Positions 4,821-50,337 of a stretch of DNA of 64,000 nucleotides are shown here, in pieces (the first letter of the stretch is position 1; the number at the start of each line of letters is the position of its first letter). The stretch covers positions 172,174,001 through 172,238,000 of the forward strand of contig OZ024743.1 of NCBI GenBank assembly GCA_964016885.1, in the 5' to 3' direction. The position numbers and the translations under genes are program-made. Under the pieces are notes generated by a model. The model worked only from the letters and a program-made list of their open reading frames with translations, ran no database searches and was not told the origin of the DNA. The DNA comes from Eledone cirrhosa (Eukaryota).

Positions 4821-4874
<54 letters not shown>
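4815..4874 (+). repeat. (AAT)20 spacer between tail-to-tail A2 and T1
   Basis: Read directly; one AAC unit. Confidence 0.98.
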
Positions 4875-4876
<2 letters not shown>

Positions 4877-5137
4877 TTTCTTTATTAACCACAAGGGTTT
4901 ACATAAAGTAGACATTAAGGACAGTGCAGGACATTGCAGGACGGTACAAATGGGCATTTCTGCGTGTAAAAAAAACAAAAACAGAGGAAGTAACAAAAAT
5001 AACAATGAAAATAACAATGAAAAATTCCCCAATAGGGGGGAGACTTCGGAGGGACATTTGTGGAGAAAGCCCAGTAAAAAGCCACAATGACCCTGACCAC
5101 CAAGGCAAGTGCCCTCTCCCAGTTTTCCACCTTTAGT

Positions 5138-8100
5138 TTACAGATATATACTCAGAGTCGGCCCATTCACTCGGGCCATTCTTGCTTCTCTCACCCATCT
5201 TTCAACAAAATGCTGGGAAGAGAGCACTTCCTTCTCTACTCTGATTTTCCTTTTCAAATGAAATTTGAAAAAGTCAATCAGAGCATCACCGAAGAGGTAA
5301 GTGCTCGTCTTCAGCCCTTTCAAACGTGTCCACCATACTATCTCTTTCGCCATGGCCACCAGACAGATAAAAACTGCCTGCCCTTCCCGGCTAAAGGAGG
5401 AGGGCGGGGCAATCCTCACGATAGACTCAGATGATAGCTGGATCCGTCCTAAACGCGACAGCAGGTGTTCGACATAAACCCACAAGTCAGCAATTTTCGG
5501 ACACTGGACGAGTGCGTGCAGGACGGTTTCGTCGCCCAGCGCGCATCTCGGACATGCCCGGCTGACGGCACCTCCATGCCTGTAGAGTTTATCCCGAACT
5601 GGCAAGGCTCCTCGGTAGCACTGCCAGGCCAGAGATTTCTGGAAGTTGTCCATAGGCCCTGGCCCGAAAGTTCTTCCGAAGAGATTGGCTAGTTGATTTT
5701 CGTCGACGCCTAGAGTTTCCCCAAGTACGTCGTCGCTCTTCTCCTCCACTAATCCTCTATAGAACGCCGAGGTGGAGTTTCCACCGATCACATTGCCCGA
5801 TTGGTCGAGGGCTGTGAGCGCCTGAAGACATTCCAGTCTCCAGGCGCTCCCTCTCGGTCTTCGCTTGACCCAGGACTGCAGCTCCGTCAAGGAAACGAGC
5901 TGGGGAAAAACGCGTCTAGCAAACGGCGACCACACCTGATCACCGTCGAGGAAGAGGTGGAGATGTCGTAGCCTGAGCGCGTGCCTGCGCATCATCAGCC
6001 ACGGCATGCCCAGCCCTCCACGTAGCGGGTGTTGACAACAGATGGACCGCCTGACCATCGGAGCACGTCCCTTCCACAAAAAGCGAAAGAGCAAACGCTC
6101 CAGCGCAGTCAGGCGAGGCTTAGGACAAGGTACGACGGTTAGGCGGTAGCAGATGACAGACGCGATGTACGCGTTAGCCACCTCCGCTCGACCTTTCAGG
6201 GATAGCTTCCTCTCCGCCCATTTCTGGGTGAGAGAAGCCACCCTGCTCGTCACCTCGTCCCAGTTTTTGTCCGTCTGGAGGTCCGGACCGAACCAGACCC
6301 CTAGCAATTTAACCGGTCCGTCCGTCCAGCGCCCGACGACGCTGTTGGACGGCATGGACCTGCCTCTCCAGGTGCCGAGCTGCAGGCCCACTGACTTTTC
6401 CTGGTTGATCATTGCTCCTGTCACCGCTTCGTATTCTCTTAGTGTAGTGCCGATCGCCTCGATGTGTTTGGCGTTCGACACCACTACGGTGACATCGTCC
6501 GCATATGCTGACACGGATCTTCCGCATCCTAGTTCGCGCGGGACTCCCCTCAACGTCTCCAGTTTGTGCAGTAATGGCTCGAGCGTCAATACGTACAAGA
6601 GGGACGAGAGGGGACATCCTTGGCGGACCGAGCGCATGATGTTGAACGGTTCCGACAGGTGACCGTTCACTCTCACCACAGAGCAGATGTCGCTGTGCAT
6701 GGCAGCGATCCAGCCTCTGAAGACGGGCCCAAAGCCAGCCGCCCTCAGGACTGCCGCTAGGTAACGATGGTCGACCCTATCGAAAGCTTTCGACTGATCT
6801 AAATTGATCAAGGACCCACCCGTGCCAGGTTCCCTAGCTACCCTCTCTACGATGTATCGCATGAGGTGGAGGTTGTCGTGGATGGATCTGTCGGGAATGG
6901 CGCATGTCTGCGCCTCTCCCACCAGACCACCAACGACAAGCGCCAACCTCTTTGCTAGCACCTTGGCCAAAATCTTAAACTCTGTGTTTAGCAGAGTTAT
7001 GGGCCGGAAATTTTCTATGTTATCCCCCTTGTTCGGATCCTTTCTCAGCAGTGCCACCGCTCCTCGGCTCACAGAACTGGGAATTCTCCCGTTCTGTTGC
7101 CAGTTGCAGTAGACGTCCGCCAAGAGGCCTCCGAACAAGTCTGGCATCTGTACGTAAAGTTCATAGGGCAGACCATCCAAACCAGGCGATTTACCCCTTG
7201 TGCAGCCAGTCATTGCCTCCCTTACTTCAGCGGCTGTTATCGGCTTTTCGCAACACTTCGCCTCAGTGGCCGAGAGCCGCGGCAGTCCGTCGAGGTAGAC
7301 ACTAAAGTCCATCCCTCTACCCGGCCCACCGCTGCCCCCGAACAGCTGAGCGAAGTGTCGCTGAAAAGCTTCACACATTTGCCCGGGATCGAGTAGCATG
7401 CGCCCGTCGTGGTCCACCAAAGACCGGATCGTGGCTTTGTTGCCACGACGCGCCTCCGCCACTCGGGCCCATTGCACGGCTTTCATCCCCTCGTGTCTGA
7501 GAGCACGCACCCTTGCTCTGACAACGCAGCCTTCGTGCTTTGCATTGAAGAATTGGTCAAGGGCCAATTTCGCCGCAAGCACGTCGGTCGCAATGCCTTT
7601 GCTAAGCGCCTCGTCTAATTTTCTAACTAGTTCTCCCTCTGCTCTATTTTTCTCTATTGCTAAAGCCTTACTAAACCTAATCGATTCTATTCTAATCGCT
7701 CTTTTCAGAGCAAACCACCACTTGTTGTTGACGATGGCCCCCGTCAACGCCCGCTTAACTAGTTCGCTAATCTGGTCTCTGTAGGCCTTGCGCGCTGGTA
7801 AGGACGCGTTTAGCTTCCAGTAGCCGGGTCCTCGTCTATGAAGCCTATCTAAGTCAAGCACACAGATCACGAATTTGTGGTCCGTGTAGCTGACTATCTT
7901 GAATTGTGGACAGCCTATGCTAGACCTATCTATTTCCCTACAAAATACTCTATCTAGATATGATCTGGATGACCCTATGCGGTTTGTCCAAGTCCACATT
8001 GGCACATTCGGGAAATCCAATCGGTACCTGTCAGACAGTTCAAAACGCCTGAGCAGGTTGGTGAGGCTCTTGCACCCTCCACCCCTATCCGCTAATCCCA

Positions 8101-8557
8101 CACAGTCCCAGCGTGCATCTAAGATCCCGTTCCAGTCGCCCACTAACACTAAAGAGCGGGACGTTCCAAGAAAGGTCTCCAGACGCCGGAATAAATCAGG
8201 CCGCCCTGCTCCTGTCGGGGCATAGACGGCCACTAGCCTGAAAGCTTGCCCGTCTCCGCTGGTCACGTCCAGCACCACCAGCTTACCCTCTGGGTCCAGG
8301 AAGATGGCCCGTATGGCGAGATCCAAACCTCTCCGAAAAAGCACAGCAACTCCTCCACCGGATCCAGGACGGCTGGGAGATGCGTACACATCGAAGCCGC
8401 CGAAGATCGGTGCGAAGGCCCGTGCTTCGGAGATTCTGGTCTCGCTGATGGCCACTACATCTATGTTTAGTGACCTGAGGTCGTTGAGCAGGTGACCCTG
8501 CTTCCATGACGACCCCAAGCCACGCGCATTTATGCTGCCTATTCTGAGTGAGGTCAT
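5138..8557 (-). CDS. Tx1-type ORF2: AP-like endonuclease + reverse transcriptase + zf-RVT, 1139 aa
   Basis: APE motifs SINARGL, ISET, GDWN, SYLDR, TDH; RT motifs KSPGLDG, QGCPLS, YADD; CPRC..ETVLHALVQC. Confidence 0.95.
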   Translation of the reverse strand: MTSLRIGSINARGLGSSWKQGHLLNDLRSLNIDVVAISETRISEARAFAPIFGGFDVYASPSRPGSGGGVAVLFRRGLDLAIRAIFLDPEGKLVVLDVTSGDGQAFRLVAVYAPTGAGRPDLFRRLETFLGTSRSLVLVGDWNGILDARWDCVGLADRGGGCKSLTNLLRRFELSDRYRLDFPNVPMWTWTNRIGSSRSYLDRVFCREIDRSSIGCPQFKIVSYTDHKFVICVLDLDRLHRRGPGYWKLNASLPARKAYRDQISELVKRALTGAIVNNKWWFALKRAIRIESIRFSKALAIEKNRAEGELVRKLDEALSKGIATDVLAAKLALDQFFNAKHEGCVVRARVRALRHEGMKAVQWARVAEARRGNKATIRSLVDHDGRMLLDPGQMCEAFQRHFAQLFGGSGGPGRGMDFSVYLDGLPRLSATEAKCCEKPITAAEVREAMTGCTRGKSPGLDGLPYELYVQMPDLFGGLLADVYCNWQQNGRIPSSVSRGAVALLRKDPNKGDNIENFRPITLLNTEFKILAKVLAKRLALVVGGLVGEAQTCAIPDRSIHDNLHLMRYIVERVAREPGTGGSLINLDQSKAFDRVDHRYLAAVLRAAGFGPVFRGWIAAMHSDICSVVRVNGHLSEPFNIMRSVRQGCPLSSLLYVLTLEPLLHKLETLRGVPRELGCGRSVSAYADDVTVVVSNAKHIEAIGTTLREYEAVTGAMINQEKSVGLQLGTWRGRSMPSNSVVGRWTDGPVKLLGVWFGPDLQTDKNWDEVTSRVASLTQKWAERKLSLKGRAEVANAYIASVICYRLTVVPCPKPRLTALERLLFRFLWKGRAPMVRRSICCQHPLRGGLGMPWLMMRRHALRLRHLHLFLDGDQVWSPFARRVFPQLVSLTELQSWVKRRPRGSAWRLECLQALTALDQSGNVIGGNSTSAFYRGLVEEKSDDVLGETLGVDENQLANLFGRTFGPGPMDNFQKSLAWQCYRGALPVRDKLYRHGGAVSRACPRCALGDETVLHALVQCPKIADLWVYVEHLLSRLGRIQLSSESIVRIAPPSSFSREGQAVFICLVAMAKEIVWWTRLKGLKTSTYLFGDALIDFFKFHLKRKIRVEKEVLSSQHFVERWVREARMARVNGPTLSIYL

Positions 8558-8592
8558 GTTTAAAATAGAGTGGAAAAGATGGGAAAGACCAC

Positions 8593-10689
8593 TTACCGTA
8601 CTTTTGGTAGAGGAGGGATGGTTTTTACATCCCTTTTCACTTGATCGTCTGGTGAAGGGACCGTTGAATCGTCCCTTCGGCTGGTCGTCGGCTCTTCTAA
8701 GAGAATGTCTGAGTATACTCTTCGATTGATGGTTCCTCCTAGGTCCCTGAAATCACCAACTGCGTTGGGGAATTTCGTTTTAATATTTGTGTATTGTTTC
8801 TGTGCTATTTTTAGCAGTCTTATGTTAGTTGGCGTTTTGATTGGTGCTGGTATTATGTAGTCCTGTTGTGAAATGTCTGTGTGTTCAATTATGTAAGTCA
8901 TTAGTTTCTTGTTGTGTGTATTTATTGCCGTGCATTTGTTTTTCTGGGGGTGGGGTGTGGTTCTGCTATTTTCTTGTCGTTGTTGCTGGGTGTGTGTGTT
9001 TTGTTGTTGTGTTTGCGATGTTGGTGCTTGTGGTGGTGGTGTTGAAGGTGTTGTTGGCGGTGGGGTTGTCGCCGGTGGTGATGGTGGCGCTAGTGTGGGT
9101 GGTGATGGTGTTGGTGTTGTTGCTGCTGTGGGTCTCTTTGCAGTAGACTTTACCCTTTTCTCATTTCTTTCCTCCCTTTTCAAAGGCGACGATGCGCTGC
9201 TTCTGCGTTTGTGCCTTCTTGCGACCTTTTGCCATCCCTCTCCCACCTCACACTCCATGTCTGATTCTGTAAGGTCGGGGAGGGGTACCAGCTCCACTCT
9301 TTCACTTGTTGTTGTTGGTGATGTTTGCACTGGAGTCTCTGTTGCAGCTGCATTTGGTATTGCTGTTGTTGTTGTTAATATTTCCACTGCTGCTGCTGTC
9401 TTTGATTTCCGTGGAGTGGGTATGGGTGCCACGGACCTATCGTTCCTGGTTGCCGCTTGTCCTGTTGCTGGTAGCCGTGGAGCCGGATTCGGAAGGAGGG
9501 GGGTTTTCTCCTTTCTCAGGGTCTTCTCGTTGCAGAAGGCCCTGAGGTGAGTCTTCGATCCACAGCGAAAGCATTTCGGGCGTTTGCCCTCAACACTTAT
9601 GGGCAGTTGAGTGCCGTTATCGAAGTCTATCACATCCGGGATAGCTTCGATGCACTCCTGGTTGGTTTGGATTAGCATCTCAATGGAGGAGCCGACCCAA
9701 TCTTCTCTTACTTTTTTCTGTACTTGCAGTACAGTTGTTTTGTCCTCGATTCCGACGAGGACAGACGCGGCCAGCCAAGAAGGGGTCATTCCGGGGGGGA
9801 CGTGGGTCAGTTTGACCCTCACAATTTTTTGCCCGCAATAGGAGGGCACCAACACCATTTCCTCGCTCCTTAGGGTCACTACTGATTGGGCCTTTGCCTC
9901 CTGGGGTGTGGCAAAAAGTACGTCTACGGTGGCGTATTTTTTGCCTCGGGTGATGTGCGTTTTCCTCTGCCACACAGACCCCAAGGCTTTTTGTATTTGG
10001 GCCTCTGTGGCTCTTTCCACCCTACGGGATTTTGTACTTATTGTACGGTACGTGACCGTACAGTGCTCTTGGGTTTCGAAAAAATTTTTCGCTGCCTTGC
10101 AGATTGCTCGGTGTCCGTTCTTTGTCACCATCTTCTTCGCTTCCTCTAATTCCTCATTTGTTATGAGGATTGTTTCCAAGTTTTTCGCAATACCTGCAAA
10201 TGAGATTGGTTTTTCTCTGCTGTTGTTGTTGTCGTCAGAGCTGCTGGTACTTTTGTTGTTGCTGCAGGTACTACGACTACTGCCTCCGCCGCTGTTGCTG
10301 TGGTTGTTGTTGGTGTTGCTGCTGCTAATGCTGTTGTTGTTTATGCTGCTGGTGATGCTGTTGCGGCTGCTACTGTTGTTTTCATTGTCACTGTTGCTGT
10401 TGTTATTACGGCTGCTACTGCTATTATTCCTGACGTCAGACGAATGAACTGGGATTTCGTATTTCCCGCACACCTGTTTCGTCGCTGTCGTCGTCGTCGT
10501 GGAGAAACCTTGCACGCTTTGCACGAGACTTTTCTTTTCTTTCGTCACTTGCGAAAGAGAAGGGAGGGAGAGAGACACATTTAAAGAAGGGAGGGAGAGA
10601 GACAATCTTCTCTCTGCTGTAGTGATGATTGAGGAAGAAGAAGACGGAATGAGTGGGAGTGACGTATGAAATTTTTTTTTCGTAGCCAT
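8593..10689 (-). CDS. Tx1-type ORF1 (nucleic-acid binding, single CCHC zinc knuckle), 698 aa
   Basis: CFRCGSKTHLRAFC; N/S-rich and P/T-rich low-complexity arms; lies upstream of ORF2. Confidence 0.88.
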   Translation of the reverse strand: MATKKKFHTSLPLIPSSSSSIITTAERRLSLSLPSLNVSLSLPSLSQVTKEKKSLVQSVQGFSTTTTTATKQVCGKYEIPVHSSDVRNNSSSSRNNNSNSDNENNSSSRNSITSSINNNSISSSNTNNNHSNSGGGSSRSTCSNNKSTSSSDDNNNSREKPISFAGIAKNLETILITNEELEEAKKMVTKNGHRAICKAAKNFFETQEHCTVTYRTISTKSRRVERATEAQIQKALGSVWQRKTHITRGKKYATVDVLFATPQEAKAQSVVTLRSEEMVLVPSYCGQKIVRVKLTHVPPGMTPSWLAASVLVGIEDKTTVLQVQKKVREDWVGSSIEMLIQTNQECIEAIPDVIDFDNGTQLPISVEGKRPKCFRCGSKTHLRAFCNEKTLRKEKTPLLPNPAPRLPATGQAATRNDRSVAPIPTPRKSKTAAAVEILTTTTAIPNAAATETPVQTSPTTTSERVELVPLPDLTESDMECEVGEGWQKVARRHKRRSSASSPLKREERNEKRVKSTAKRPTAATTPTPSPPTLAPPSPPATTPPPTTPSTPPPQAPTSQTQQQNTHTQQQRQENSRTTPHPQKNKCTAINTHNKKLMTYIIEHTDISQQDYIIPAPIKTPTNIRLLKIAQKQYTNIKTKFPNAVGDFRDLGGTINRRVYSDILLEEPTTSRRDDSTVPSPDDQVKRDVKTIPPLPKVR

Positions 10690-10904
10690 GTTGTTTTTTG
10701 TTTAAAATGAAATTTTGGGTACAAAACCCCAATAACTGGTTATTTAACCCCGAAGGGCCAAATGACGGACAGAAAGACCCCTCTCACGAGGAGGAGGGTG
10801 TCTTTATCAACAATTTGGTTCAAGTTTTAAACAATTTACAATTGTTTTAACGGTTAAAAATTACTATACCTTACAGAGCCGAGCCTCCGTCAACCATGGC
10901 ATTC

Positions 10905-10937
<33 letters not shown>
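10905..10937 (+). repeat. (AAT)11 spacer between head-to-head T1 and B1
   Basis: Read directly. Confidence 0.98.
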
Positions 10938-10938
<1 letters not shown>

Positions 10939-11741
10939 TATTGTTATAAGGCTAAAATATTCAAATATTCAACTTTGTATTGTACAATGTATATCCAAAA
11001 AAAAAAAAAAAAAAATGGCTATAAATGGAAGAAGAAGAACCCCCCCCCCTCCTCTCCTCTGGCTACACTATATAGGACAGCTAAACTCACCAACACCAGA
11101 AACTAGATACACCACCCACCCCATCATCTGTGTACACTAAACACAACAGCCAGATAACGACATTTTCACCTTCACCGCCACCGCTCACTACGGCCATCAT
11201 TACCACCACTATCCCATCACCGCCGCCACTACCCCTTGACTCCTTCACTGCTGCCACCGCTACAGCACCATCACTACAGTAATACGGTCGCATCACCGCC
11301 ACCACTGCCTCGGTATCGACATCACCACCACCACTGTCTCAGTATCGCCAACGCCGCCAGTCTCCCACTTCTCCCTTGGCTGCTACTTCCACATTATAGA
11401 ATTCCTACTACTAACAAAGAGGAAGGCATCAAAATATATAGATAGACTCAAAAGAAAAAAGAAAAAACAAACAACAAAACCAAAGCAGCACAGCAACAAC
11501 AGCAAAAACGAGAAAAACAGAGAAAAACAAAAACAAAAAAAGAAACCCCAAAAACGTAAAGAAAATAAGAATGAAGAGAGAAGCAGGCGGACGGACAGAG
11601 AAGAGGGGGGGGGGGAGTAAAACTTAAAAAACAAAAACTAAGTCAGACATTCGAATACTACATTACAATGAAACTTATGCTTATTCATTTTTGGGGCCCT
11701 TTCTGCCCGTGTGTTTGTTTGTTTATGTGTGTTCGTGTACA

Positions 11742-19756: not shown

Positions 19757-20346
19757 TCTGCTGCTGCTGATGTTGTTGCGGCTGCTACTAGTGTTTTCCT
19801 TGTCACTGGTGCTGCTGCTGCTGTTATTACGGCTGCTGCTGCTATTCTTCATGACGTCAGACGAATGAAATGGCTTTCCGTATTTACCGCACACATCTTT
19901 CGGTGTTGTCGTCGTTGTGGGGAAATGTTCCACGGAATGCACGTTCTCTTGGTGGAAGCTACTAGAAACTATATTTTTCTTTTTCTTTAATGGCGTCGCT
20001 TGCGAAAGAGGCGACACCACATTTAGAGAAGGGAGGGAGAGAGACAATCTTCTCTCTAATGAAGTGACGATTGAGGAAGAAGAGGACGGAAAGAGTGGGA
20101 GTGACTTGAGAAAATTATTTTTTGTAGCCATGTTTTTTTACGGTTTAAAATGAATATTGGGCACAAAACTTCAATAAGTGGTTATTTAACCCCGAAGGGC
20201 CAAATAACGGGCAGAAATACCCCACTCACGAAGAGGAGGGTCTTTTTATCTACAGTTTGGTTCAAGTTTTAAAAGATTTACAATTGTTATAGCGGTTAAA
20301 AATTACTATATCTTACAGAGCCGAGCCTCCGTCAACCATGGCATTC
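15373..20346 (-). mobile_element. Tx1 copy T2 (ORF1 type 1), both ends present, internally deleted and degenerate
   Basis: Same termini as T1; deletions near 16430, 16530 and 17015; ORF1 and ORF2 fragmented. Confidence 0.9.
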
Positions 20347-20364
20347 AATAATAATAATAATAAT

Positions 20365-20607: not shown

Positions 20608-20609
<2 letters not shown>
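20508..20609 (-). mobile_element. SINE 3' fragment, truncated within the B box
   Basis: Matches ~60234-60337. Confidence 0.85.
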
Positions 20610-20666
<57 letters not shown>

Positions 20667-20679
20667 TATTATTATTATT

Positions 20680-23600
20680 CACGAGGTGACGGAGGTCATG
20701 AAATCGCTCCCGTAAGTTTTGAATGTTTTACATATTTAAATCATTTGTGAAATAACAACTCTTAGTACAAATGCTACGTAAAGCACGCGGCTTGAGCCCC
20801 AAAAAATTCGCACCCAAAATATATTGTTATAAGGCTCAAATATTCAAATATTCAACTTTGTATTGTACACTGTATATCCAAAAAAGAAAATGGCTATAAA
20901 TGGAAGAAGAACCCCCCCCCCCTCCTCTCCTCTGTCTACACTATATAGGACAGCCAAACTCACCAACAGCAGAAACTAGATACACCACCCACCCCATCAT
21001 GTGTGTACACTAAACACAACAGCCAGATAACGGCATTTTCAACCGCTCACTACGGCCATCATTATCACCATTATCCCATCACCGCCGCCACCACCCCTTC
21101 ACTCCTTCACTGCTGCCACCGCTACAGCACCATCACTACAGTAATACGGTCACATCACCGCCACCACTGCCTCGGTATCGACATCACCACCACCACTGTC
21201 TCAGTATCGCCACCGCCGCCAGTCTCCCACTTCTCCCTGCTGGCTGCTACTTCCACATTATAGAATTCCTACTACTAACAAAGAGGAAGGCATCAAAATA
21301 TATAGATAGACTCAAAAGAAAAAAGAAAAAACAAACAACAAAACCAAAGCAACACAGCAACAACAGCAAAAACGAGAAAAACAAACAGAAAAACAAAAAA
21401 AAAAAAAAAAACCCAAAAAAACGTAAAGAAAATAAGAATGAAGAGAGAAGCAGGCGGACGGACAGAGAAGAGGGGGTAAAAACTAAAACTTAAAAAACAA
21501 AAACTAAGTCAGACATTCGAACATTACATTACAATGAAACTTATGCTTATTCATTTTTGGGGCCCTTTCTGCCTGTGTGTTTGTTTGTTTATGTGTGTTC
21601 GTATACAGCGTGGTGATAATGCCACACAAGAGCCAAGTGGAATGGCGGATCCACAGATGGATATGTAACCATACATTCGCCAATCCTCGATAAGAGTGTT
21701 AAATATCGAACATAAACAGTTCGAATAACGGTGAAATGGAGACTAGAACGTCATGTGACAGACTCTCACCCAACAGGTGCCCCCTGGCTCAGCAGCAGGA
21801 ACCTGACTGTCAACCAAATACTGCTGATGTTGGAGGAAGGAGAAGAAGGAAAGGGGCCAGAACCAACTGGACGAAAGAATTGAATAGAACTGTTATGCAA
21901 TGTTACCTGAAAAGTAACCCCAAGGAGAGGGGCTACAGGAGACGGATGCATAACATCTGGAACGAGATTGGTTTATTTAAATTAGATGAACAAAAATTGG
22001 CCGGGCAGGCTCGGGTAATAAGAACTAATGGATGGATAAGCGAGCTGGAACTGGAGGAACTGAGCAGAGAGAATGGCTTGGAGATGGCGGGTGTAGTATG
22101 CCAGACAAGCGAGCCAGTGGGAAATGAAGGTGAAGAGGTCCTGAGAACGGAGGAACCACCCGAAGCAGACAATGATCTGAATACTGAGATAAATAATACC
22201 TGGAACAGAGATACGGCCACTGAGGAGATGAATGCTGACGGGCTAGGACAAGATTCGGTTGACATCCTAAATTTAGTGGTAGATGAATTGAACAATGATA
22301 GTGAGAGACCTATGAACCTAAGATTTGTAGACAGGAAAAAGTTAAAAGAAAAAACAGCTAAGGTAAACAAAGTCATCCTATACCTTGAGGCGAGGAGCCT
22401 TCACCAGTGCAACAATATCCTCAAAGCAACAGCAAATACGGTGAGGAAACTACTTGGTATAAAAGCGAGAGAAAACAACAGACAAGAAAGAGCAGAGCCG
22501 TGGTGGAAGAAACGACTGAGTGGGCAAATCGGGGAAATGAGAAATGACGTAGGAAAGCTTGAGTCACTACTGAATGGGACACTAAAAAACATAGGCACTA
22601 AAAATAGACTGGAAATAAAATACAAAACTAGGAGGAAAAAGCTAAATATTATCATAGAGGAACTGAAGCAACGCTTTGTAGCAAAGAGTGCAAAAATCAG
22701 GCGATACGAGAACAGAGTCAGTCAGTATAAACAGAACCGCATGTTCGACAACAACCAGAAGATGCTGTTTGGACAGCTTGAGGGGAAAGAAAGAGGCAAC
22801 GACTTGATCCCTGGGGCGGAGCAAACTAAAACATTCTGGAGAGGAATATGGGAGCAGGATGTTAGAGACAATGCCCAGGCAGGGTGGATTGAGACAGTAC
22901 AGAGGGAGATCGGTGAGCAGGCACAATAACAAACTGATTTGAGTATCACAGTTGAAACTCTTAAGGGGCAGGCCAAAAAACTAACCAACTGGAAATCACC
23001 AGGCCCAGATGGTGTGCAGGGGTATTGGATTAAACATGTAACATCCCTCCACCCGAAGCTGACGGCCATGTTCAATGACTGCTTGGTGTCGGGTGAGGTG
23101 CCAGAGTGGTTGACAAAAGGTACCACAGTTCTGATAATGAAAGACCGAATCAAGGGTAATGATGTTAGCAACTATAGACCTCTCACATGTCTGTCCGTAA
23201 TGTGGAAACTGTTGACGAGCATTGTGTCTGAGGAAATCTACCATCACCTCCACACAAACAACTTGTTACCGGACGAACAGAAAGGATGCCGAAAGAAGTC
23301 ACGTGGTACAAAGGACCAGTTACTTATTGATAAGATGGTAATGGGGAATTGCAGGAGGAGACACACTGATCTTGCCATGGGATGGATAGACTACAGAAAG
23401 GCATTTGACATGGTGCCTCATTCCTGGATCACCAAAAGCCTGGAGATCTTCAGGGTGGCAGATAACATCAGACAGTTGCTAGGCAGGAGTATGGGTCCTG
23501 GGAGACAGAGTTGACATCAACTGGAGTATCCTTGGGAAGCGTGAAGATCAAGAGAGGTATCTTCCAGGGAGATAGCCTGTCCCCTCTGTTGTTTGTCCTT

Positions 23601-25201
23601 GCCCTGATGCCCTTGACCATTATGCTGCGAAAAGTGAGAGCAGGATACAAGTTGGGAAGGGGAGAGCTTATCATCAATCACCTCCTCTTCATGGACGATC
23701 TTAAGCTCTTCGGGAAAAGTGAGAAGGAGTTGGATGTGCTTGTTGACACTGTCCGTATTTTCAGCAGTGATATATGTATGCAGTTTGGTATTGGTAAATG
23801 TGGAGTCATTGTGATGAAGAGGGGTTGGTTGAGCAGAAGTAACGGGATCCAGATACCAACAGGTGAAATTATAAAGGAAATGGACTCTGAGGAAGGATAC
23901 AATTATTTGGGCGTTCTGGAGGCTGATGGCATAAAGAACAAAAAAATGAAGGAATTGTTAAGAACTGAATACATTCGGAGAGTAAGGAGCGTATTGAAGT
24001 CACATCTGAACAGCAGAAATGCCATAAGCGCAGTAAATTCCCGAGCTGTGTCTATTATTAGGTACAGTGCGGGAATTCTGAGATGGAATGTTGCTGAACA
24101 AAAAGAAATGGATAGGAAGACTAGGAAGCTATTGACTATCTACAACATGTTCCACAAGAGGAGTGATGTCGATAGACTCTACCTAAGGAGATCTGAGGGT
24201 GGAAGAGGTCTTATCAGCATAGAGGACTGTGTTCAGATGGAGAAAAACAACCTATACAAATACGTGACCTATAGTAAGGAGCCAATGCTCAGAACTGTAC
24301 TGAAGGAGGGGACAGTAGGCCAGGGGATGTCCAAGGAGGAAATAACATCAAGGAGGAAGAGCAGCCTTAAGGGAAAATCCCTTCATAGTACCTTCTTTGA
24401 GAAAACTGAATTTAGAGATCCACAGACATGGAACTGGTTGAGAAGAGGAGACCTCAAAAAGGCTACAGAAGGAATGCTAATGGCTGCGCAGGAGCAGGCC
24501 CTCAAAACGAAGTGGTTGAAGCACCATATCTACAAGGAGGAGGCTAGCCCACTGTGCAGGATCTGTGGAGAGAGAGAGGAGACTGTGGCTCACATTGTGT
24601 CCGAGTGTAAACACCTAGCCCAGACCCACTATAAGGGCTGGAGACACGATGTGATGGGCAGGGTGATCCACTGGCACCTGTGCAAAGTAAACAATTTACC
24701 ACATTCTGAGAAATGGTATGAGCATAGGCCAGAGGGGGTGATGGAGAACAATCAGGTGAAGGTGCTGTGGGATTTTAGGATACAGACGGACAAAAAACTG
24801 GAACACAATAGACCTGACCTGGTGGTTGTGGACAAAGAAAAAAGATCGTGTCTGATTGTGGATGTGGCCTGCCCGTTCGACACGAGAGTGCAAGAGAAGG
24901 AGAGGGAGAAAATTAACCGATACCAGGATCTAAAGTGGGAGGTGAAAAGGATTTGGAACTGCCATGAAGTCAAAGTGATCCCGATTGTCATAGGCGCACT
25001 GGGGACTATCTCCAAAAGTTTCCAGGGATGGTTAAAGAAAATCGGCCCCTTCACGCTTTTTGGAACGCTTCAAAAGGCATGCTTGCTTGGAACAGCAAGA
25101 ACCCTCCGATACGTCCTGAATATCTGAGGCTGCAGGTAGTGGCTTGATATTCAATCCAACGGACTTTCCAGTTAACCAACATCAATGACTGAGATTCAAG
25201 G
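20680..25201 (+). mobile_element. Dong-B copy B2, full-length
   Basis: ~1055 nt leader, ORF and 3' UTR matching other B copies; AAT tail. Confidence 0.92.
21736..25127 (+). pseudogene. Dong-B polyprotein with premature stop (22927-22929) and frameshift (~23495)
   Basis: CAA>TAA and a missing G relative to B1/B4/B5. Confidence 0.88.
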
Positions 25202-25276: not shown

Positions 25277-26095
25277 GGGAGAAGACGCACGAGGTGGTAG
25301 AAGGTCATGAAATCGCTCCCGGAAGTTTTGAATTTTTAACATATTTAAATCATTTGTGAAATAACAACTCTTTGTACAAATGCTACGTAAAGCATCCGGC
25401 TTGAGCCCCAAATAAATTCGGACCCAAAATATATTGTTATAAGGCTCAAATATTCAAATATTCAACTTTGTATTGTACATTGTATATTCAAAAAAGAAAA
25501 TCGCTATGAATGGAAGAAGAACCCCACCCCCCCCTCCTCTGTCTACGCTATATAGAACAGCCAAACAACACCAGAAACTAGATACAACACCTACCCCGTC
25601 AGCTCTCTGTGTACACTAAACACAGATAACGGCAATTTCACCACCACCACTCACTACTGCCATCATTACCACCACTATCCCATCACCGCCGCCACCACTC
25701 CTTCATTGCTGCCACCGCTACAACACCATCGCTACAGTAATACGATCACGTCACCGCCACCACTGCCTCGGTATCGACATCACCACCACCACAGTCTCAG
25801 TATCGATACCGTCGCTACTGTCTCCCACATCTCCCCGCCGCCACCACTCCTTCAAATGCTACCACCACTATTCCCTGTTAACTTGAGAGAGAAAGGGGAA
25901 GGTGGCTGTATCACTAGACAAGGGAGAGGCTAGCAAAAGATATAAATAGATTGACTTAGTGACCTGGCCACATCAACAATTATGGGACTGCTGGTTCACC
26001 CCTTCCTCACCAACGATATAAAAAGCCCCGGCACCACCACCGACATAGCCAACAACAATAACAGCCAACCACAACAAAAAGTATATTATATTATT

Positions 26096-26140: not shown

Positions 26141-26232
26141 ATTATTAATAATTTCATTCTTAAGCCACGCAATGCTCACATTAAGGAACCACTCATGATA
26201 ATAACAACTTAAAAAAACAACAAAAAGAAAAC

Positions 26233-26372
26233 CCCGCGACCAAGAAATACCTGGATTGCGGCCGGCGGGAATAGCCGTGTCTCTAGGGGAGAACGACCCC
26301 TCTAGTCTTGGTTGACACTCGTTCTAGAAGTGGTAACACGAAATGATTACCCCTTGGCAGATAAGGATAAAA
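26233..26372 (+). other. Candidate pseudoknotted RNA structure upstream of the Dong-A ORF
   Basis: Complementary segments found by eye; one compensatory pair versus A5 (61405-61545). Confidence 0.5.
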
Positions 26373-26390
26373 CGCGACAAAATAAAGTAA

Positions 26391-29300
26391 ATGTCTAATG
26401 ATAAAATCTCATACCGGATCGGCCGTCACCCGGGTAAAAAAGGGCCGCGTCCCTCAGAGAGGAACCAGACTGGGGTCGAAAAATCAGCTAATGGTTCAAA
26501 CCTTCCCATCACTTCGGAGCTGGAGACCTCCCATAACCGGAATACTCCTACTGTTGGCCCTCCATGCTCACCACCAAGAAATCCAAAGAAAAAGAGAGAA
26601 AAATGGTCAAGGGAAGATAATAAAGAAGTCCTTGAGGCTTTCTACACTGCCGTGTACTACCCATCAAATACATCGAATACAGAACAGACATATATCAACT
26701 GGAAAAAGAAACATCCCGAAAAAAGAGGCTATATTGACAGCAACAAACTAGCCAATATACGAAGAAATATTGTAAGAAAAAAGTTACTAACTGATATAGA
26801 AATTGATCAGATCAAGCTATTAGCACAAAGTCAGCGAAGGGAAAATAAAGCATGTGTCAGTGAAAACGAGGTAAACTGTAACACTTCCAATCCCAGGGTT
26901 GGGGCGGAATCACTGGCAACAGAAAAAATTAAAGAAAGGATCGAAAAAGTGGAGGGAGTGCATGCTCAGGATGAAACTCCAAATGAAAATAATGAGATAG
27001 TAAATGATAAAGAAATGAATGAGAATGAACTTGCCAACTTGAAGGATGAAATTATGATCGAATGGATGAAAATGAAAGAATCTGACATGGGGCAACGAGA
27101 CACCCTCCCTAAGATCCAGAACTCCAAACAGAACCAAAAGATAATACACAAGACTAACATAATTCTCAAAAACATTATCATCACAAACAAACTAAACATT
27201 ACTGATTTAAATCATCTCTATTATGCATCGGCTAAAGTCACCACTCACTTATGTGGAGTGAAGATGAAAAAACAAAGGAATTCCCACAAGAAATCTACTT
27301 GGCAAGAGAACATCAATCGCCAAATAAACCTTCTCCGATCTGACATAGAAATTTTAACAAACTATAAAGTAGGTGAACATGTTAAACAAACTAAACTTAG
27401 AAAATTGAAAAAAAAGTACAGTATAAAATCAACATGTGACATAGACATGCTGATAGAAATAATCAAGCAAAAAGTGTCGGTCAAAGCTGCTCGTATAAGG
27501 CGCTTTGAAAAACGATGATCTAGATTCTATAAGGACAATAATATGTTCAAAAACAACCAAAGAAACTTCTACAGAAAAATTGGTAAGTCAACAATAACTG
27601 CTAAATCAATACCACCCAAGGAGGAAGTGCAAGAATTCTGGGAAAAGATCTGGGCCGAAGAAAAAGTTCATAACATACATGCCCCATGGATAGACAGACA
27701 AATGAAAGATACAGCTCACCTTGAAGAACAAACATGGGAAAATATAACAGTTGAACAGTTGCGCTTGGCTCTAAGAAAAACCAGCAAATGGAAATCCCCA
27801 GGAAAAGACAAAATACAAAACTTTTGGATAAATGCCTTCACAGAGTCTCATGAGCTGTTAGCCCAACTTTACAATGAAATAGTTAAGGAGCCAGAAAAGA
27901 TACCTTCATGGCTAGTTAACGGCATTACATTCCTGCTTCCGAAGAATGATGAGACAAACAATCCCAAAAATTACAGACCGATAACTTGCTTGACCACAAT
28001 GTATAAACTTTTAACATCAGTCCTAACTGAATACACATATGACCACCTGATAACAAATGACCTATTTCCCATTGAGCAGAAAGGGTGTAAACGAGGCTCA
28101 TATGGCTGTAAGGATCAGCTTCTGGTTACCAAAATGATACTGGAAGATTGTCATAATAGACACAAAAATCTATCGATTGCTTGGATAGATTATAAAAAAG
28201 CATTTGATAGTTTGCCACACAGTTGGATTGAAAAATGTTTAGAGATTTTCAAAATATCCCCCGTTGTCAGGAGGTTTTTGTCATTCAGTATGAAGACATG
28301 GAAAACGACACTCCTTTTGAATAGTGAAACAAAATCACTGGAAGCTGGAGAAGTTAATATTAAGTGTGGAATTTTTCAGTGTGACTCTTTATCACCGCTT
28401 TTATTCTGCATCGCACTTATACCATTAAGTAAAATGCTCAATGAAACAAAACATGGATATAAAGTCTATGACAAAACCATTAATCACCTGTTCTACATGG
28501 ATGACCTGAAACTATTTGCAAAAAATGATGAACAATTGCAAGAGCTATTATCCACTGTGGAGCAGTTCGGTTATGACATTAAAATGGAGTTTGTACTAGA
28601 TAAATGCGCCAAAGCAACGTTCACCAGAGGAAAGCTGCTGAAGAGTTCAGACATTAATCTTGATCGAGGGAACGTGATAAGAGAACTTGATCAAGAAAAA
28701 ACTTACAAATATCTAGGTGTTTGTGAAGGAGACGGAATCAAGCACTCGACAATGAGGGAAAGGATAAGGAAGGAATGTTACCGCAGAGTAAGAGCAATCT
28801 TAAGAACGGAATTGAATGCAAGGAATAGGATCGATGCCATAAACACGCTTGCCATACCAGTAGTAACCTACAGTTACAATGTCATCAACTGGTCAAGCAC
28901 AGAGATCCGTAGGCTCGATACAAAAATTCGAAAATTCTTAACCATGCACAGAATGCATCACCCTAAGGCAGATATAGATAGAATATATCTCCCCAGGAAA
29001 GAAGGAGGACGTGGGTTAATCCAGTTAGACATTGCGTTGAAAACTGCAACAATTGGATTATCTACAGGGTAACTGCAAAGAAAGAACTGCTACAGAAACT
29101 GGCTAAGAAATGGCAAGAAAATCCTCTGTATGGAAAATACCCAGAGCGAGCTAACAATCCTGATGTTGACAAAACTTTAACCCATCAGTGGTTGGCATCC
29201 TCTGGACTGAAATCGTAAACTGAAGGACTGATTATATCAGCACAAGATCAGTGTCTGCCAACAAAAAATTACCAAGCCAACATAATAATAAATGGATGCA

Positions 29301-38440: not shown

Positions 38441-38452
38441 AATAACAACAAC

Positions 38453-38488
<36 letters not shown>
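38441..38488 (+). repeat. (AAT/AAC)16 spacer
   Basis: Read directly. Confidence 0.97.
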
Positions 38489-38489
<1 letters not shown>

Positions 38490-38711
38490 TTTTCTTTATT
38501 AACCACAAGGGTTTACATAAAGTAGACATTAAGTACAGTACAGGACAATACAGGACGGTACAAATGGGCATTTCTGCGTGTAAAAAATAACAAAGACAAA
38601 TTCCCCAATAGGGGTAGACTTCCGAGGGACATTTGTGGAGAAAGCCCATTAAAAGACCACAGTGAATCTGACCACCAAGGCAAGTGCCCTCTCCCAGTTT
38701 CCACCTTTAAT

Positions 38712-42115: not shown

Positions 42116-42149
42116 GTTGAAAAGGAGTGGAAAAGATGGGAAAGACCAC

Positions 42150-44148
42150 TTACCTTACTTCTCGTAGGGGAAGGACGGTTTTTCCATCCTTTTCACTGCT
42201 TGTGGCCTCCTCAGGAAGGATGTCCTTATAAATCCTCCTGGAGAGTGCTTGTCGGAAGTCTCCGATGTCTTTGGGGAATTTTTGTTTTCGTGTCATGTAC
42301 GTTTTCTGTGCGATGCGAGTGATTTGTATGTGTGGAGGTGGTGTGAATTTTGGGGTTGTTGTGTAGTCTTTTTCTGTGATGCTGGTGTTGTGTTGGATGT
42401 AGTGTAATAATTGCTTGTTGTTCAAATTTAATGCTGTGTAGTGTGTATCGTTTTGGTTGTTTTGTTTTGTTTGCGTTTGTTGTGGGTTTGTTTCTGTTTC
42501 GCATTTTGGTGACTTTTGTGGTGTAGGTGATGGTGGTGTTGGGGTTAATGATGGTGATGGTGTTGGTGTTTGGGTTGATGGGGTTGGTGATGCTGGTGTG
42601 GATGGTGGCATATCTGTCCTAAATTTTTTGTTTGTTAATTTATTTGTTTCCCTCTGTATTTTGTTTTTGGAGGGGGAAGGAAGAGAATTTTTTCTTTTTT
42701 GGTTTCTTTTTTTTTTCCTGATACCGTTTCCCACTCCTCGTCGTCACAATCTGTCTCCAGTTGTGATAGGCCGGGGAGTGGAAAATTCTCCACAGGCGTT
42801 AGTTTTGGTTGTGGCGTGGTGGATGGTGTAGGCGCTGGTGCTAGTTCTGAAGCGTTGGGTGGTGGTTGTGTTGGTTTTGCTGGTGGTGGTGGTGTTGGTT
42901 TTGCTACTGTTGCTGGGGTTGTTGCTGTTATAGTTGCTTCTGTTGTTGCTGCTACAGTTGTTGCTGCCATCTCTGCTACTGGTGGTGTTGATGGTTGTGT
43001 CACTGGGGTGGGTAGGAGAGGTGGCCTCAACCTTTTAGCCTGAGGGCAGAAAGCCCTTAGGTGGGTTCCTTCACCACAAACGACACACCTAGGCCTTCTG
43101 CCCTCGACAATTACGGTGAGGTGGCTGCCGTCAGTGAGGTCTATTACCTCTGGGATCTCCTCAATGCTTTTTTTGTCCGCTTGGATCAGGAGCTCCATCC
43201 CAGATCCGGACCAGTTCTCCTGCTTTTCTTTTGCTATTGCTATTATCTTTGTGTTGGCTTCGATGCCGGCGAGGACGGCCGCTATTAGCCAGGGAATTTC
43301 GATGGGCGGTGGAACGTGGGTCACCCTGATCTTTACGAGTCTCTGGCCACAATAGCTTGGGACGAGTGTGAAGTCGTCACTTCTTAATGGGGCCATGGAG
43401 TGTTCTCTAGCCTCCTCTGGTGTTTCAAAGAACACGTCCACCGTTCCATACTTCTGCCCACGTCTGATGTGGGTTTTTCTTGCCCACACATGTCCCAAAG
43501 CTTTTTGGATGTGGGACTCGGATGCCCGTTCCACTCGGCGCGATTTTACATTTATTGTTCGATACGACACGGTGCATAGACGCCGATGCTCCCTTTTATT
43601 AGGTGGGGCGGGGGTGAGGCTGACCCTGTACCCATCTTTCTTTACCATTTGTTTGGCATTTTCTAAATCCTCCTGAGTTACCGTAAATGCTTCGAACTGT
43701 TTTGCTACTCTGGCAAAACTCAGGGTGTTTTTTTAATGTCATTGTTGTTGTTGTTGCTATCGTTATTTTTGTTATTATTAATTTTAGTTTCAGTTGTGGT
43801 GGTGGTGACGTCATTGAAAGTCGGTTTGGGAGAGTCCATTTTGGTTGAAAATATTTCGACATCACGAGTTGATTTATTTTTTGCTTTTGTTTCTGTTGTT
43901 GCGGTGGTGGTGGTGGTGGTGGTGGTGGTGGTGGTGGTGGTTGTCGCGGTGGTGGTGGCGGCTTTAACACCTTCAGTCATTGGTAATGGCGGGAAATGAA
44001 TGTCTGCCTGAAACAAATTTAAAATATTGCTAGTGCTTAAATTGTTTGTGTTGGCAAACGTAGTATCATTTACAATGGTGGTGTCGGTGTGAGGTGTTAA
44101 TTTGTGAGGAAGGCTTTCAGCTGCTTGGTGCAGAGGTGAATTAGCCAT
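42150..44148 (-). pseudogene. Tx1 ORF1 type 2 with two frameshifts in A-tracts
   Basis: MANSP.. / ..CVVCGEGTHLRAFC.. / ..PLREVR fragments. Confidence 0.83.
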
Positions 44149-44357
44149 TTTTTTTCAAAGAAATTTTTTGATAATCATAAAAGTTTAAATTTTGTGTACA
44201 AGGCCCCAATCTTTTTGGGTGTCCTTTTCGGAAAACAATGTATGTGCGCTTATATATAGTTAACAATAAAAACTTTCCATAAATGGCAATTTTTAACAAA
44301 CGGAAATAACAAACCTTTGCGGAGCTCACGATGATACGATTTACTACGTAGGTCGCC

Positions 44358-44396
<39 letters not shown>

Positions 44397-44398
<2 letters not shown>

Positions 44399-47300: not shown

Positions 47301-50296
47301 ACGCGTTTAGCTTCCCGTAGCCGGGTCCTCGTCTATGAGGCCTATCTAAGTCAAGGACACAGATCACGAATTTGTGGTCCATGTAGCTGACTATCTTGAA
47401 TTGTGGACACCCTATGCTAGACCTATCTATTTCCCTACAAAATACTCTATCTAGATATGATCTGGATGACCCTATGCGATTTGTCCAAGTCCACATTGGC
47501 ACATTCGGGAAATCCATTCGGTACCTGTCAAACAGTTCAAAACGCCTGAGCAGGTTGGTGAGACTCCTGCACCCTCCTTCCCTATCCACTAATCCCACAC
47601 AATCCCAGCGTGCATCTAAGATCCCGTTCCAGTCGCCCACTAACACTAAAGAGCGGGACCTTCCAAGAAAGGTCTCCAGACGCCGGAAGATATCAGGCCG
47701 CCCTGCTCCTGTCGGGGCATAGACGGCCACTAACCTGAAAGCTTGCCCTTCTCCGCTGTTCACGTCCAGCACCACCAACTTACCTTCTGGGTCCAGGAAG
47801 ATGGCCCGTATGGCGATATCCAAACCTCTCCGAAAAAGAACAGCAACTCCTCCCCCCGATCCCGGACAGCTGGGAGATGCGTACACATCGTAGCCGCCGA
47901 AGATCGGTGCGAAGGCCCGTGCTTCGGAGATTCTGGTCTCGCTGATGGCCACTACATCTATGATTAGTGACCTGAGGTCGTTGAGCAGGTGGCCCTTCTT
48001 CCATGACGACCCCAAGCCACGCGCATTTATGCTGCCTATTCTGAGTGAGGTCATGTTGAAAAGGAGTGGAAAAGATGGGAAAGACCACTTACCTTACTTC
48101 TCGTAGGGGAAGGACGGTTTTTCCATCCTTTTCACTGCTTGTGGCCTCCTCAGGAAGGATGTCCTTATAAATCCTCCTGGAGAGTGCTTGTCGGAAGTCT
48201 CCGATGTCTTTGGGGAATTTTTGTTTTCGTGTCATGTACGTTTTCTGTGCGATGCGAGTGATTTGTATGTGTGGAGGTGGTGTGAATTTTGGGGTTGTTG
48301 TGTAGTCTTTTTCTGTGATGCTGGTGTTGTGTTGGATGTAGTGTAATAATTGCTTGTTGTTCAAATTTAATGCTGTGTAGTGTGTATCGTTTTGGTTGTT
48401 TTGTTTTGTTTGCGTTTGTTGTGGGTTTGTTTCTGTTTCGCATTTTGGTGACTTTTGTGGTGTAGGTGATGGTGGTGTTGGGGTTAATGATGGTGATGGT
48501 GTTGGTGTTTGGGTTGATGGGGTTGGTGATGCTGGTGTGGATGGTGGCATATCTGTCCTAAATTTTTTGTTTGTTAATTTATTTGTTTCCCTCTGTATTT
48601 TGTTTTTGGAGGGGGAAGGAAGAGAATTTTTTCTTTTTTGGTTTCTTTTTTTTTTCCTGATACCGTTTCCCACTCCTCGTCGTCACAATCTGTCTCCAGT
48701 TGTGATAGGCCGGGGAGTGGAAAATTCTCCACAGGCGTTAGTTTTGGTTGTGGCGTGGTGGATGGTGTAGGCGCTGGTGCTAGTTCTGAAGCGTTGGGTG
48801 GTGGTTGTGTTGGTTTTGCTGGTGGTGGTGGTGTTGGTTTTGCTACTGTTGCTGGGGTTGTTGCTGTTATAGTTGCTTCTGTTGTTGCTGCTACAGTTGT
48901 TGCTGCCATCTCTGCTACTGGTGGTGTTGATGGTTGTGTCACTGGGGTGGGTAGGAGAGGTGGCCTCAACCTTTTAGCCTGAGGGCAGAAAGCCCTTAGG
49001 TGGGTTCCTTCACCACAAACGACACACCTAGGCCTTCTGCCCTCGACAATTACGGTGAGGTGGCTGCCGTCAGTGAGGTCTATTACCTCTGGGATCTCCT
49101 CAATGCTTTTTTTGTCCGCTTGGATCAGGAGCTCCATCCCAGATCCGGACCAGTTCTCCTGCTTTTCTTTTGCTATTGCTATTATCTTTGTGTTGGCTTC
49201 GATGCCGGCGAGGACGGCCGCTATTAGCCAGGGAATTTCGATGGGCGGTGGAACGTGGGTCACCCTGATCTTTACGAGTCTCTGGCCACAATAGCTTGGG
49301 ACGAGTGTGAAGTCGTCACTTCTTAATGGGGCCATGGAGTGTTCTCTAGCCTCCTCTGGTGTTTCAAAGAACACGTCCACCGTTCCATACTTCTGCCCAC
49401 GTCTGATGTGGGTTTTTCTTGCCCACACATGTCCCAAAGCTTTTTGGATGTGGGACTCGGATGCCCGTTCCACTCGGCGCGATTTTACATTTATTGTTCG
49501 ATACGACACGGTGCATAGACGCCGATGCTCCCTTTTATTAGGTGGGGCGGGGGTGAGGCTGACCCTGTACCCATCTTTCTTTACCATTTGTTTGGCATTT
49601 TCTAAATCCTCCTGAGTTACCGTAAATGCTTCGAACTGTTTTGCTACTCTGGCAAAACTCAGGGTGTTTTTTTAATGTCATTGTTGTTGTTGTTGCTATC
49701 GTTATTTTTGTTATTATTAATTTTAGTTTCAGTTGTGGTGGTGGTGACGTCATTGAAAGTCGGTTTGGGAGAGTCCATTTTGGTTGAAAATATTTCGACA
49801 TCACGAGTTGATTTATTTTTTGCTTTTGTTTCTGTTGTTGCGGTGGTGGTGGTGGTGGTGGTGGTGGTGGTGGTGGTGGTTGTCGCGGTGGTGGTGGCGG
49901 CTTTAACACCTTCAGTCATTGGTAATGGCGGGAAATGAATGTCTGCCTGAAACAAATTTAAAATATTGCTAGTGCTTAAATTGTTTGTGTTGGCAAACGT
50001 AGTATCATTTACAATGGTGGTGTCGGTGTGAGGTGTTAATTTGTGAGGAAGGCTTTCAGCTGCTTGGTGCAGAGGTGAATTAGCCATTTTTTTTCAAAGA
50101 AATTTTTTGATAATCATAAAAGTTTAAATTTTGTGTACAAGGCCCCAATCTTTTTGGGTGTCCTTTTCGGAAAACAATGTATGTGCGCTTATATATAGTT
50201 AACAATAAAAACTTTCCATAAATGGCAATTTTTAACAAACGGAAATAACAAACCTTTGCGGAGCTCACGATGATACGATTTACTACGTAGGTCGCC
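44397..50296 (-). mobile_element. Tx1 copy T4 (type 2), a T5/T3 chimera created by tandem duplication
   Basis: 3' ~1 kb matches T5, remainder matches T3 (offset 5935-5939). Confidence 0.9.

Positions 50297-50335
<39 letters not shown>

Positions 50336-50337
<2 letters not shown>

Follow-up and report, generated by a model that had tools for sequence, protein, structure and literature searches.

The R2, R4 and Dong elements tested so far depend on co-transcription and self-cleavage, and to our knowledge little is established about how elements with a restriction-like endonuclease (RLE) are transcribed outside ribosomal DNA. The 5' end of the Bombyx mori Dong element is described as an active hepatitis delta virus (HDV)-like ribozyme (PMC3774820), and (TAA)n is given as the target of Dong/R4 elements (PMC7998251). 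Recruitment of 5' untranslated regions (UTRs) is established for mammalian L1 (PMC3600994, PMC5381506), and an RTE 5' UTR domain is carried by R4-1_ADi of coral and by Ingi-3_AC (PMC5786205). Dong-R4 and L1-Tx1 elements are abundant in Octopus vulgaris, Dong-R4 with 1129 recent insertions (PMC13282606, Table 1). Here, we analyzed a stretch of 64,000 nucleotides (nt) of the Eledone cirrhosa genome (contig OZ024743.1, positions 172,174,001 to 172,238,000; hereafter the window), in which Dong-like retrotransposons carry a 5' leader that is, on the comparisons given below, virtually certain to be homologous to the 5' UTRs of Tx1-like elements, which belong to the retrotransposons with an apurinic/apyrimidinic endonuclease (APE). 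We favor, with some reserve, the reading that this module of ~220 nt is the 5' UTR of an old Tx1-like group, captured once, and that it serves Dong as an internal RNA polymerase II promoter.

The window is a stack of retrotransposons lacking long terminal repeats (non-LTR) within (AAT)n. The 3.0-Gb genome was sampled by searches, with L-numbers denoting fetched loci; A3, A5, B1, B2 and T1-T5 are labels of an initial annotation of the window, and T6-T17, family C and groups I and II were defined in this analysis. The plus strand holds two Dong-like families, A and B, with one open reading frame (ORF) each, intact in copies at L246 (A, 1216 aa) and L096 (B, 1130 aa). Their proteins are 36% identical, and their only relatives in the PDB are R2 proteins. 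RVT_1 was found in these ORFs, CCHC and a C-terminal PD-(D/E)xK endonuclease were read as motifs, and there was no match to Exo_endo_phos, i.e., no APE. Both N-termini hold a conserved Trp-containing block, and a Pfam search of them gave no Myb/SANT match. As judged from their 5' flanks, the copies sit in (TAA)n in a fixed orientation. By ORF layout, motifs and target, A and B fit the Dong type (R4 clade, RLE). The minus-strand elements have an ORF1 with a zinc knuckle and an ORF2 with an N-terminal APE, a reverse transcriptase (RT) and a C-terminal zinc finger, as seen in T1, whose ORF2 has L1 ORF2p as its best PDB match (E 6e-52). Directly 5' of T1, T3, T6, T7 and T10 copies lies (ATT)n, which amounts to target-specific insertion. 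We regard these elements as Tx1-like, the label Tx1 rather than L1 following the initial annotation and the domain layout. Coordinates are collected in Table 1.

The initial annotation had pointed to a likeness between the Dong leaders and the 5' UTR of T1, based on motifs in a common order. The motifs are present where it placed them, with AATTTTTAAC at 25331 (+) and 10853 (-), TTAAAACAATTGT at 60515 (+) and 10838 (-), TGACGGAGG at 20687 (+) and 10884 (-), and ATGGCTA at 20890. The distances from 5' end to ATG of 210 nt in B2, 215 nt in T1 and 209 nt in T3 are also correct, B2 lacking the first ~12 nt of the family leader. The exact TGACGGAGG match is real but confined to the newest of three leader versions, the older ones reading otherwise, and is therefore derived or due to chance. 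The motif order needs amending, as in a multi-family alignment the Dong ACCCAAAAT aligns with a CCCATAAT block ~85 nt before the ATG and not with the ACCCAAAAT that T1 has near its ATG. In the shuffle tests that had been proposed, the alignment of B2 and T1 scored 232, a value reached by 1/500 dinucleotide shuffles (z 4.0) and by 3/500 shuffles within local 20-nt windows (z 2.8), and comparisons of A5 with T1 and with T3 gave z ~6 and ~4.1-4.6 (0/500). With BLAST-like scoring, most leader-UTR pairs in the window were weak or non-significant. T1 compared with T3 reaches a similar level, so that pairwise scores within the window did not suffice to separate homology from shared layout.

By reading the neighbors in fetched loci and by profile cross-searches, ~15 Tx1-like 5' UTR types were found, comprising group I (T3, T6, T8, T10-T14, T17) and group II (T7, T9, T15), with T1 between them. 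Between its 5' block and the ATG, the Dong leader is colinear with the UTRs of group I. A Tx1-only profile, made from the T3, T6, T8 and T10-T14 UTRs with no Dong sequence, was run against a database of 1.37 Mb of real DNA, where it matched old Dong leaders with up to 59.9 bits (E 1e-16), colinear over ~190 nt. The best unrelated match in this database scored 9.0 bits, the reversed database gave 3.6 bits, and 350 shuffles in 10-nt windows reached 3.1 bits at most; one higher unclassified match, at L254, turned out to be another Tx1-type UTR. Median scores by leader age were 49.0 bits for the oldest (n=30), 36.6 for the old (n=25) and 18.9 for the new version (n=15), and with T10 removed from the profile they were 27.2, 16.8 and 3.8 bits, respectively (shuffles 2.4 at most). 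Within the window the profile recovered A5 (E 3e-14), A3 (E 9e-5), B2 (20705-20886, 14.9 bits, E 3e-4) and T1 (E 5e-4), the signal of B2 being weak because it has the most derived leader version.

These scores bear on convergence or chance, under which promoter-like sequences rich in AT would simply look alike when they have a donor-like site and an A-rich context at the start. The modest pairwise scores within the window would agree with it, as would an unrelated element at L113:2515-3010 (+), which resembles a miniature inverted-repeat transposable element, with short terminal inverted repeats and a GC-rich start followed by GTAAGT, like the UTR layout. However, the group II UTRs share this layout (donor-like site, T-rich stretch, A-rich start context) with Dong leaders and group I, and a group II profile gave Dong leaders no match (2.3 bits or less), so that layout cannot by itself account for the match. 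Set against the Dong-free profile (E 1e-16), the near gap-free colinearity and the ~3 bits at most of 10-nt local shuffles, convergence appears extremely unlikely.

The nearest Tx1 relative lies outside the window. The UTR at L242 was matched by a T3 profile (34.8 bits) and by an old-Dong profile (27.1 bits); its family, T10, is an old Tx1 group located after (ATT)n. Its Tx1-like nature is indicated by 19 of 20 extended loci running in sense into ORF1, APE or RT pieces, five of the 20 with the full order ORF1-APE-RT-C. The copy at L242:4546-5000 (+) is internally deleted, its T10 UTR being joined via a short stretch to a Tx1-like 3' end. Pairwise comparison of the oldest leader with L348 and with T10 (L242) gave identities of 63-64% and z 8-10, the alignment with L348 including ~145 almost gap-free columns; its identities in one multi-family alignment were 60% with T10, 55% with T3 and 47% with T1. 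The proposed search for a matching Tx1 subfamily thus found the T10 group, but at an identity of only ~60-64% and with no closer Tx1.

The initial annotation had proposed that a T1-type promoter and an ORF1 stub came from a neighbor in the shared (AAT)n target. The z values of 3-4 for B2 with T1 and 4.6-6 for A5 with T1, the exact 9-mer common to T1 and the newest leader, and the failure of the approximately unbiased (AU) test to reject a Dong+T1 grouping (see below) would speak for it. T1 (or T3) as nearest relative or donor is nevertheless not supported, T10 being much closer, and a T1-only profile reached 6.2 bits at most on Dong, with none of 15 new-type leaders matched and a median of 1.1 bits on 25 old-type leaders. 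Tx1 and Dong insert in opposite polarity (head to head), so that an adjacent neighbor would have supplied an antisense UTR and could not donate the leader. The supposed stub, a P/T/H-rich stretch, shows no homology to Tx1 ORF1 beyond composition, as BLAST and profile tests gave low-complexity matches only and reversed controls scored equally. We consider this origin very unlikely. Altogether, the likeness of the Dong leader to Tx1 5' UTRs is confirmed, and the reading placed on it is partly supported.

A genome search with the leader gave 1473 first-look candidates, from which 40 were scored and 30 loci fetched. All 30 continue into B. In 27 of them the sequence is colinear over 1.7 kb, and the other three differ by a deletion or duplication inside it; the 5' junctions all lie no more than a few bases from a single start, after (AAT)n and with unrelated flanks. 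Amongst 60 distinct leaders, 48 are followed by the A or B pre-ORF region, which bears out the leader as the fixed 5' end of dispersed Dong copies. The newest version is followed by B in 25 cases and by A in two (five have neither behind), the old version by A in 16 and by B in two (six have neither), and the oldest by B in 25 of 30 and by A in none. The B2 leader is 98% identical to dispersed B copies and ~92% identical to the A3 leader, and B2 is 86% identical to A3 over 20608-21240. In the protein tree, A and B lie in separate parts, B amongst homologs from other sources, so leaders that are 80-92% identical were not vertically inherited. Old B copies at L099:6824-7950 and L104:6567-7740 have an old-type leader stacked before the remnant of the oldest leader. 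The leader has moved between A and B at least twice.

Other observations concern the structure of these copies. L297, considered as a sister family of A, proved to be an ordinary A with frameshifts, and its two rows in the protein tree were disregarded. [quoted passage not shown]

The transfer very likely went from Tx1 to Dong. In the UTR tree the Dong leaders form one clade (100/99), which a split of 100/99 places on the side of group I; as AU tests fix no donor, the direction is argued from other points. There are ~15 Tx1 UTR types, most of them leading into ORF1, against one Dong clade, and the midpoint root lies between Tx1 groups. A 12-bp hairpin situated 45-80 nt before the ATG is intact in T1, T6, T8, T10 and T13, with five two-sided changes, and weaker in T3, T7, T9, T12, T14 and T15; it is absent from all three Dong leader versions. 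The ATG that opens ORF1 in Tx1 opens only 4-72 codons in Dong, where it starts a short upstream ORF (20 oldest-type copies). Dong leaders thus possess the colinear homology of group I UTRs but neither the hairpin nor the open ORF1. Additionally, in family C, the sister of A in the protein tree (SH 94), none of 30 loci had a sense leader match within 1.5 kb upstream, and the B. mori Dong has a ribozyme end. The reverse direction or a third source, with the module passing from Dong, a host gene or a third element into Tx1 group I, or into both independently, could be argued from a tree that does not put Dong inside a supported Tx1 subclade (p-AU 0.41 for Dong as sister to all group I) and from the lack of a donor above ~64% identity. 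We hold it improbable, given a Tx1 UTR diversity that is far greater and reaches past group I to T1 and T7, the hairpin and ORF start kept in Tx1 and lost in Dong, the root position, and a family C without the module.

A course of events can be proposed for capture by Dong from Tx1. Its starting point is shown, dispersed copies of A and B having the module as their fixed 5' end and the module being colinear with the UTRs of group I. A Tx1 5' end would have been joined in sense to a Dong body, either through a template jump by the Dong RT or through a sense insertion of Dong into the AAT/AAC run just inside Tx1 ORF1. RT template jumping is known for R2. Strand switching has been discussed for L1 (PMC3600994). 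The CAC/AAC-rich stretch behind the module fits the insertion into Tx1 ORF1 by composition only. A pattern of decay is seen in what follows capture, with the RNA hairpin and the reading frame degraded and the first ~115 nt less changed than the middle. The leader was passed between A and B on at least two occasions, a newer leader being stacked before the oldest remnant in some old B copies. If transcripts start at the module, the native 5' end would need no cutting from a host co-transcript.

The module is probably a promoter for Dong A and B. Besides the module's homology to a short 5' UTR of L1 type and the clustering of Dong 5' junctions within a few bases of the module start, next to unrelated flanks, this is suggested by the first 125 nt of the leader being unstructured (z +1.3, +1.5). 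The oldest and newest leaders are 83% identical over positions 10-115 (85/103) vs 50% over positions 115-175 (30/60; p 2e-5). Within module positions 1-230, two motifs were singled out, a CAC(G/A)TG box, which may be an E-box, and the GCTCCCGTAAGT block. A pattern for host promoters gave 14 matches vs 19 in the control, i.e., no enrichment, and the best of the 14 loci scored 3.9 bits on the Tx1-only profile, which is background only. Genomic copies in which the donor-like site is joined to the AG ahead of the B ORF, as splicing would produce, were looked for and none was found (one junction, in B only); a comparison of four contig runs indicated presence only, with no GT..AG joint amongst the 15 of 16 joints listed. 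A U-rich tract ending in TACAG before the B ORF (~21540-21590, +) resembles a splice acceptor.

The module may alternatively be derived from Tx1 without being a promoter, acting at the RNA level (e.g., as a donor-like site that binds U1) or as a passenger, with read-through RNA of the arrays being cut near the module start by something else. This could account for a leader that diverges faster than the fourfold sites of the ORF and for a GTAAGT-like block that is its best-kept motif, and Dong does pick up flanking DNA, as the antisense Tx1 3' fragments and SINE pieces in the A/C 5' regions illustrate. Against it stand the precise 5' ends with unrelated flanks, the lack of a ribozyme-like fold, and the retention of the module through several A/B exchanges, even stacked before older leaders. 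We judge this explanation unlikely.

Several observations weigh against a Tx1 promoter captured by Dong. The true donor was not found, as the nearest Tx1 found is only ~60-64% identical, and no capture intermediate was seen amongst 199 Tx1 UTRs, six of which have Dong downstream in antisense and one in the same sense, the latter not a clean insertion. The AU test rejects neither the sister position to all group I mentioned above nor Dong+T1 (p-AU 0.10). Twelve of the 60 leaders are without an A/B pre-ORF region in the fetched DNA, four having short flanks and eight being truncated or interrupted, and the family C copies are old and interrupted, with only 1.5 kb of flank read. The best-kept part of the leader, at 83%, compares with 96% (66/69) at fourfold sites of the B ORF in the same copy sets, so that purifying selection relative to this neutral yardstick is not shown; a longer history of the leader through family A could explain the extra divergence. 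Finally, 12-14 ATGs precede the Dong ORF in leader-bearing copies, and translation of this ORF would therefore need an additional explanation.

Beneath the leader, an older 5' end can be recognized. Ahead of the ORF, A and C have a region of 160 nt in common. Copies of C begin at this region, following (AAT)n, and it is probably the native 5' end of this lineage. At 26229-26390 and in the C loci L301-L330, it shows two helices of 7 bp, the first of which begins with G-U while the second has a two-sided change. By eye the helix order is HDV-like, but there is no matching core and Rfam was negative, for which reason an HDV-like ribozyme was rejected; the region is possibly a decayed or unusual ribozyme. 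Rfam found no ribozyme in the leaders, nor in the pre-ORF regions of A and B. About 22 distinct A copies start at the native end (24 matches, two overlapping) vs 947 that continue upstream, so this end is not cut efficiently now. In a hot-spot test at this end the control pattern had no matches, the contrast being weak as the control fits the youngest A copies only. The idea that A copies starting at the native end form a pre-capture subfamily was dropped, as the 12 loci examined are scattered amongst leader-bearing copies. The B pre-ORF region (~21640-21735 and 56650-56800, +) has hairpins, a TCCTCG loop motif and, in old copies, repeated 17-nt units; its look is weakly HDV-like and Rfam was negative. 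In the A/C 5' region (~26170-26225, +; L228, L217, L302-L330), part of a Tx1 3' end lies in antisense with AAT behind it. It is a fixed feature of the family and may be read as an older capture of flanking DNA. Subfamilies of C have differing further 5' extensions.

Table 1. Positions of leaders, UTRs, ORFs and associated features in the window.
Feature	Position	Strand	Remarks
T1 ORF1 and ORF2	5138..10689	-	ORF1 zinc knuckle; ORF2 APE, RT, zf-RVT
T1 5' UTR	10683..10904	-	Distantly related member of the leaders' UTR family; 14.3 bits with the Tx1 group I profile, 14.5 bits with the Dong profile
Hairpin in T1 UTR	10739..10766	-	12 bp, UUCG loop; kept in Tx1 types, lost in Dong
B1 leader	10935..11021	+	5'-truncated, 3' third only
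T2 5' UTR	20125..20347	-	Older T1 type, head to head with B2
B2 leader module	20680..20896	+	Newest version, first ~12 nt absent; homologous to Tx1 group I 5' UTRs
Block GCTCCCGTAAGTTTT	20706..20720	+	Common to Tx1 group I UTRs, 5' splice donor-like; alignments
ATG at position of Tx1 ORF1 start	20890..20892	+	In Dong opens a short upstream ORF only
CAC/AAC-rich stretch	20897..21250	+	Common to A and B leaders; no detectable ORF1 homology
B-specific part of 5' UTR	21251..21735	+	A/B alignment breaks down
Dong B ORF (B2)	21736..25127	+	Broken; putative Myb-like N-terminus, RT, CCHC, PD..D endonuclease
A3 leader module	25277..25506	+	New version, on family A element; 16.7 bits (E 9e-5) with the Tx1-only profile
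Probable native 5' end of A/C Dong lineage	26229..26390	+	Now internal; structured, no recognized ribozyme
Dong A ORF, 5' part	26391..29072	+	Broken in A3 copy
T3 5' UTR	44143..44357	-	Tx1 group I member
T4 5' UTR	50082..50296	-	Copy of T3
T5 5' UTR	55960..56124	-	Partial, T3 type
A5 leader module	60445..60667	+	Older version, best Tx1 match of the window; Tx1-only profile 47.6 bits, E 3e-14

Additional features of the window concern the arrangement of its elements. The (AAT)n array turns into (ATT)n at 20666-20679, directly before B2. T1 and T3 are 93% identical in ORF2 (4827-8641 vs 38441-42197; see also L103) and ~52% in the ORF1 core, with UTRs that barely align, which indicates that Tx1 lineages here swap blocks of UTR and ORF1. 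Three T3-type elements lie head to tail at 38449-54314. The UTRs of the two full-length ones are identical, and the next unit matches at 97% over ~10 kb, which suggests a tandem duplication.

If the promoter reading is true, the module frees Dong from host transcripts and replaces ribozyme-based co-transcription, and the leader provides a traceable answer as to how RLE elements are transcribed, for an abundant and recently active family. It also shows an exchange of modules across the deepest split amongst non-LTR elements, with a named source for a recruited 5' UTR, which is often impossible in L1 studies. Core promoter elements could be mapped, in a genome of cephalopod type, along the series formed by the three dated leader versions and ~15 Tx1 UTR types. 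We regard as evenly balanced the broader proposition that an RLE lineage dropped ribozyme release from host co-transcripts, took the internal promoter of an APE-clade element with the same microsatellite target, and handed it from one to the other of two deeply diverged Dong lineages, and that the expansion through the genome is due to this promoter.

In full-text literature no Tx1-derived 5' end on a Dong/R4 element was found described; Repbase, Dfam and subscription journals lay outside that search. The B. mori Dong and Ascaris R4 elements, as described, resemble the Dong elements here in their single ORF, RT, RLE and (TAA)n target, and may also do so in their Myb-like N-terminus (PMC3774820, PMC7998251). 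They differ in having a ribozyme 5' end that cuts at the junction, whereas the elements here have an unstructured Tx1-derived module ~1.05-1.1 kb before the ORF. R4-1_ADi is likewise an R4-clade element that shares 5' UTR sequence with a distant APE clade, but its published account concerns a mid-UTR piece of 45 nt (positions 135-179 out of 652) and gives no donor lineage or history; in Dong the entire 5'-terminal UTR is involved, in a graded series of versions. The copies of the R2-like BLAG element of a cockroach also share extra upstream sequence, which its authors read as outside promoters; the description proposes host promoters beside the insertion and no capture from another retrotransposon clade (PMC7650587). 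The Pr77 hallmark of L1Tc/ingi is similarly a 5' module of several retroelements with an internal promoter, but it is reported within one clade and its derivatives and includes a ribozyme (PMC3383444). As in mammalian L1, where a young 3' part recruits an older 5' end, a non-LTR lineage has gained a new 5' end that is swapped between families; the exchanges described for L1, however, take place amongst L1 families or from unknown sources, while a source can be identified for Dong, on the other side of the RLE/APE divide. The process, 5' UTR recruitment, is thus a known one, and what is notable is that it crosses this divide and that its source group can be named.

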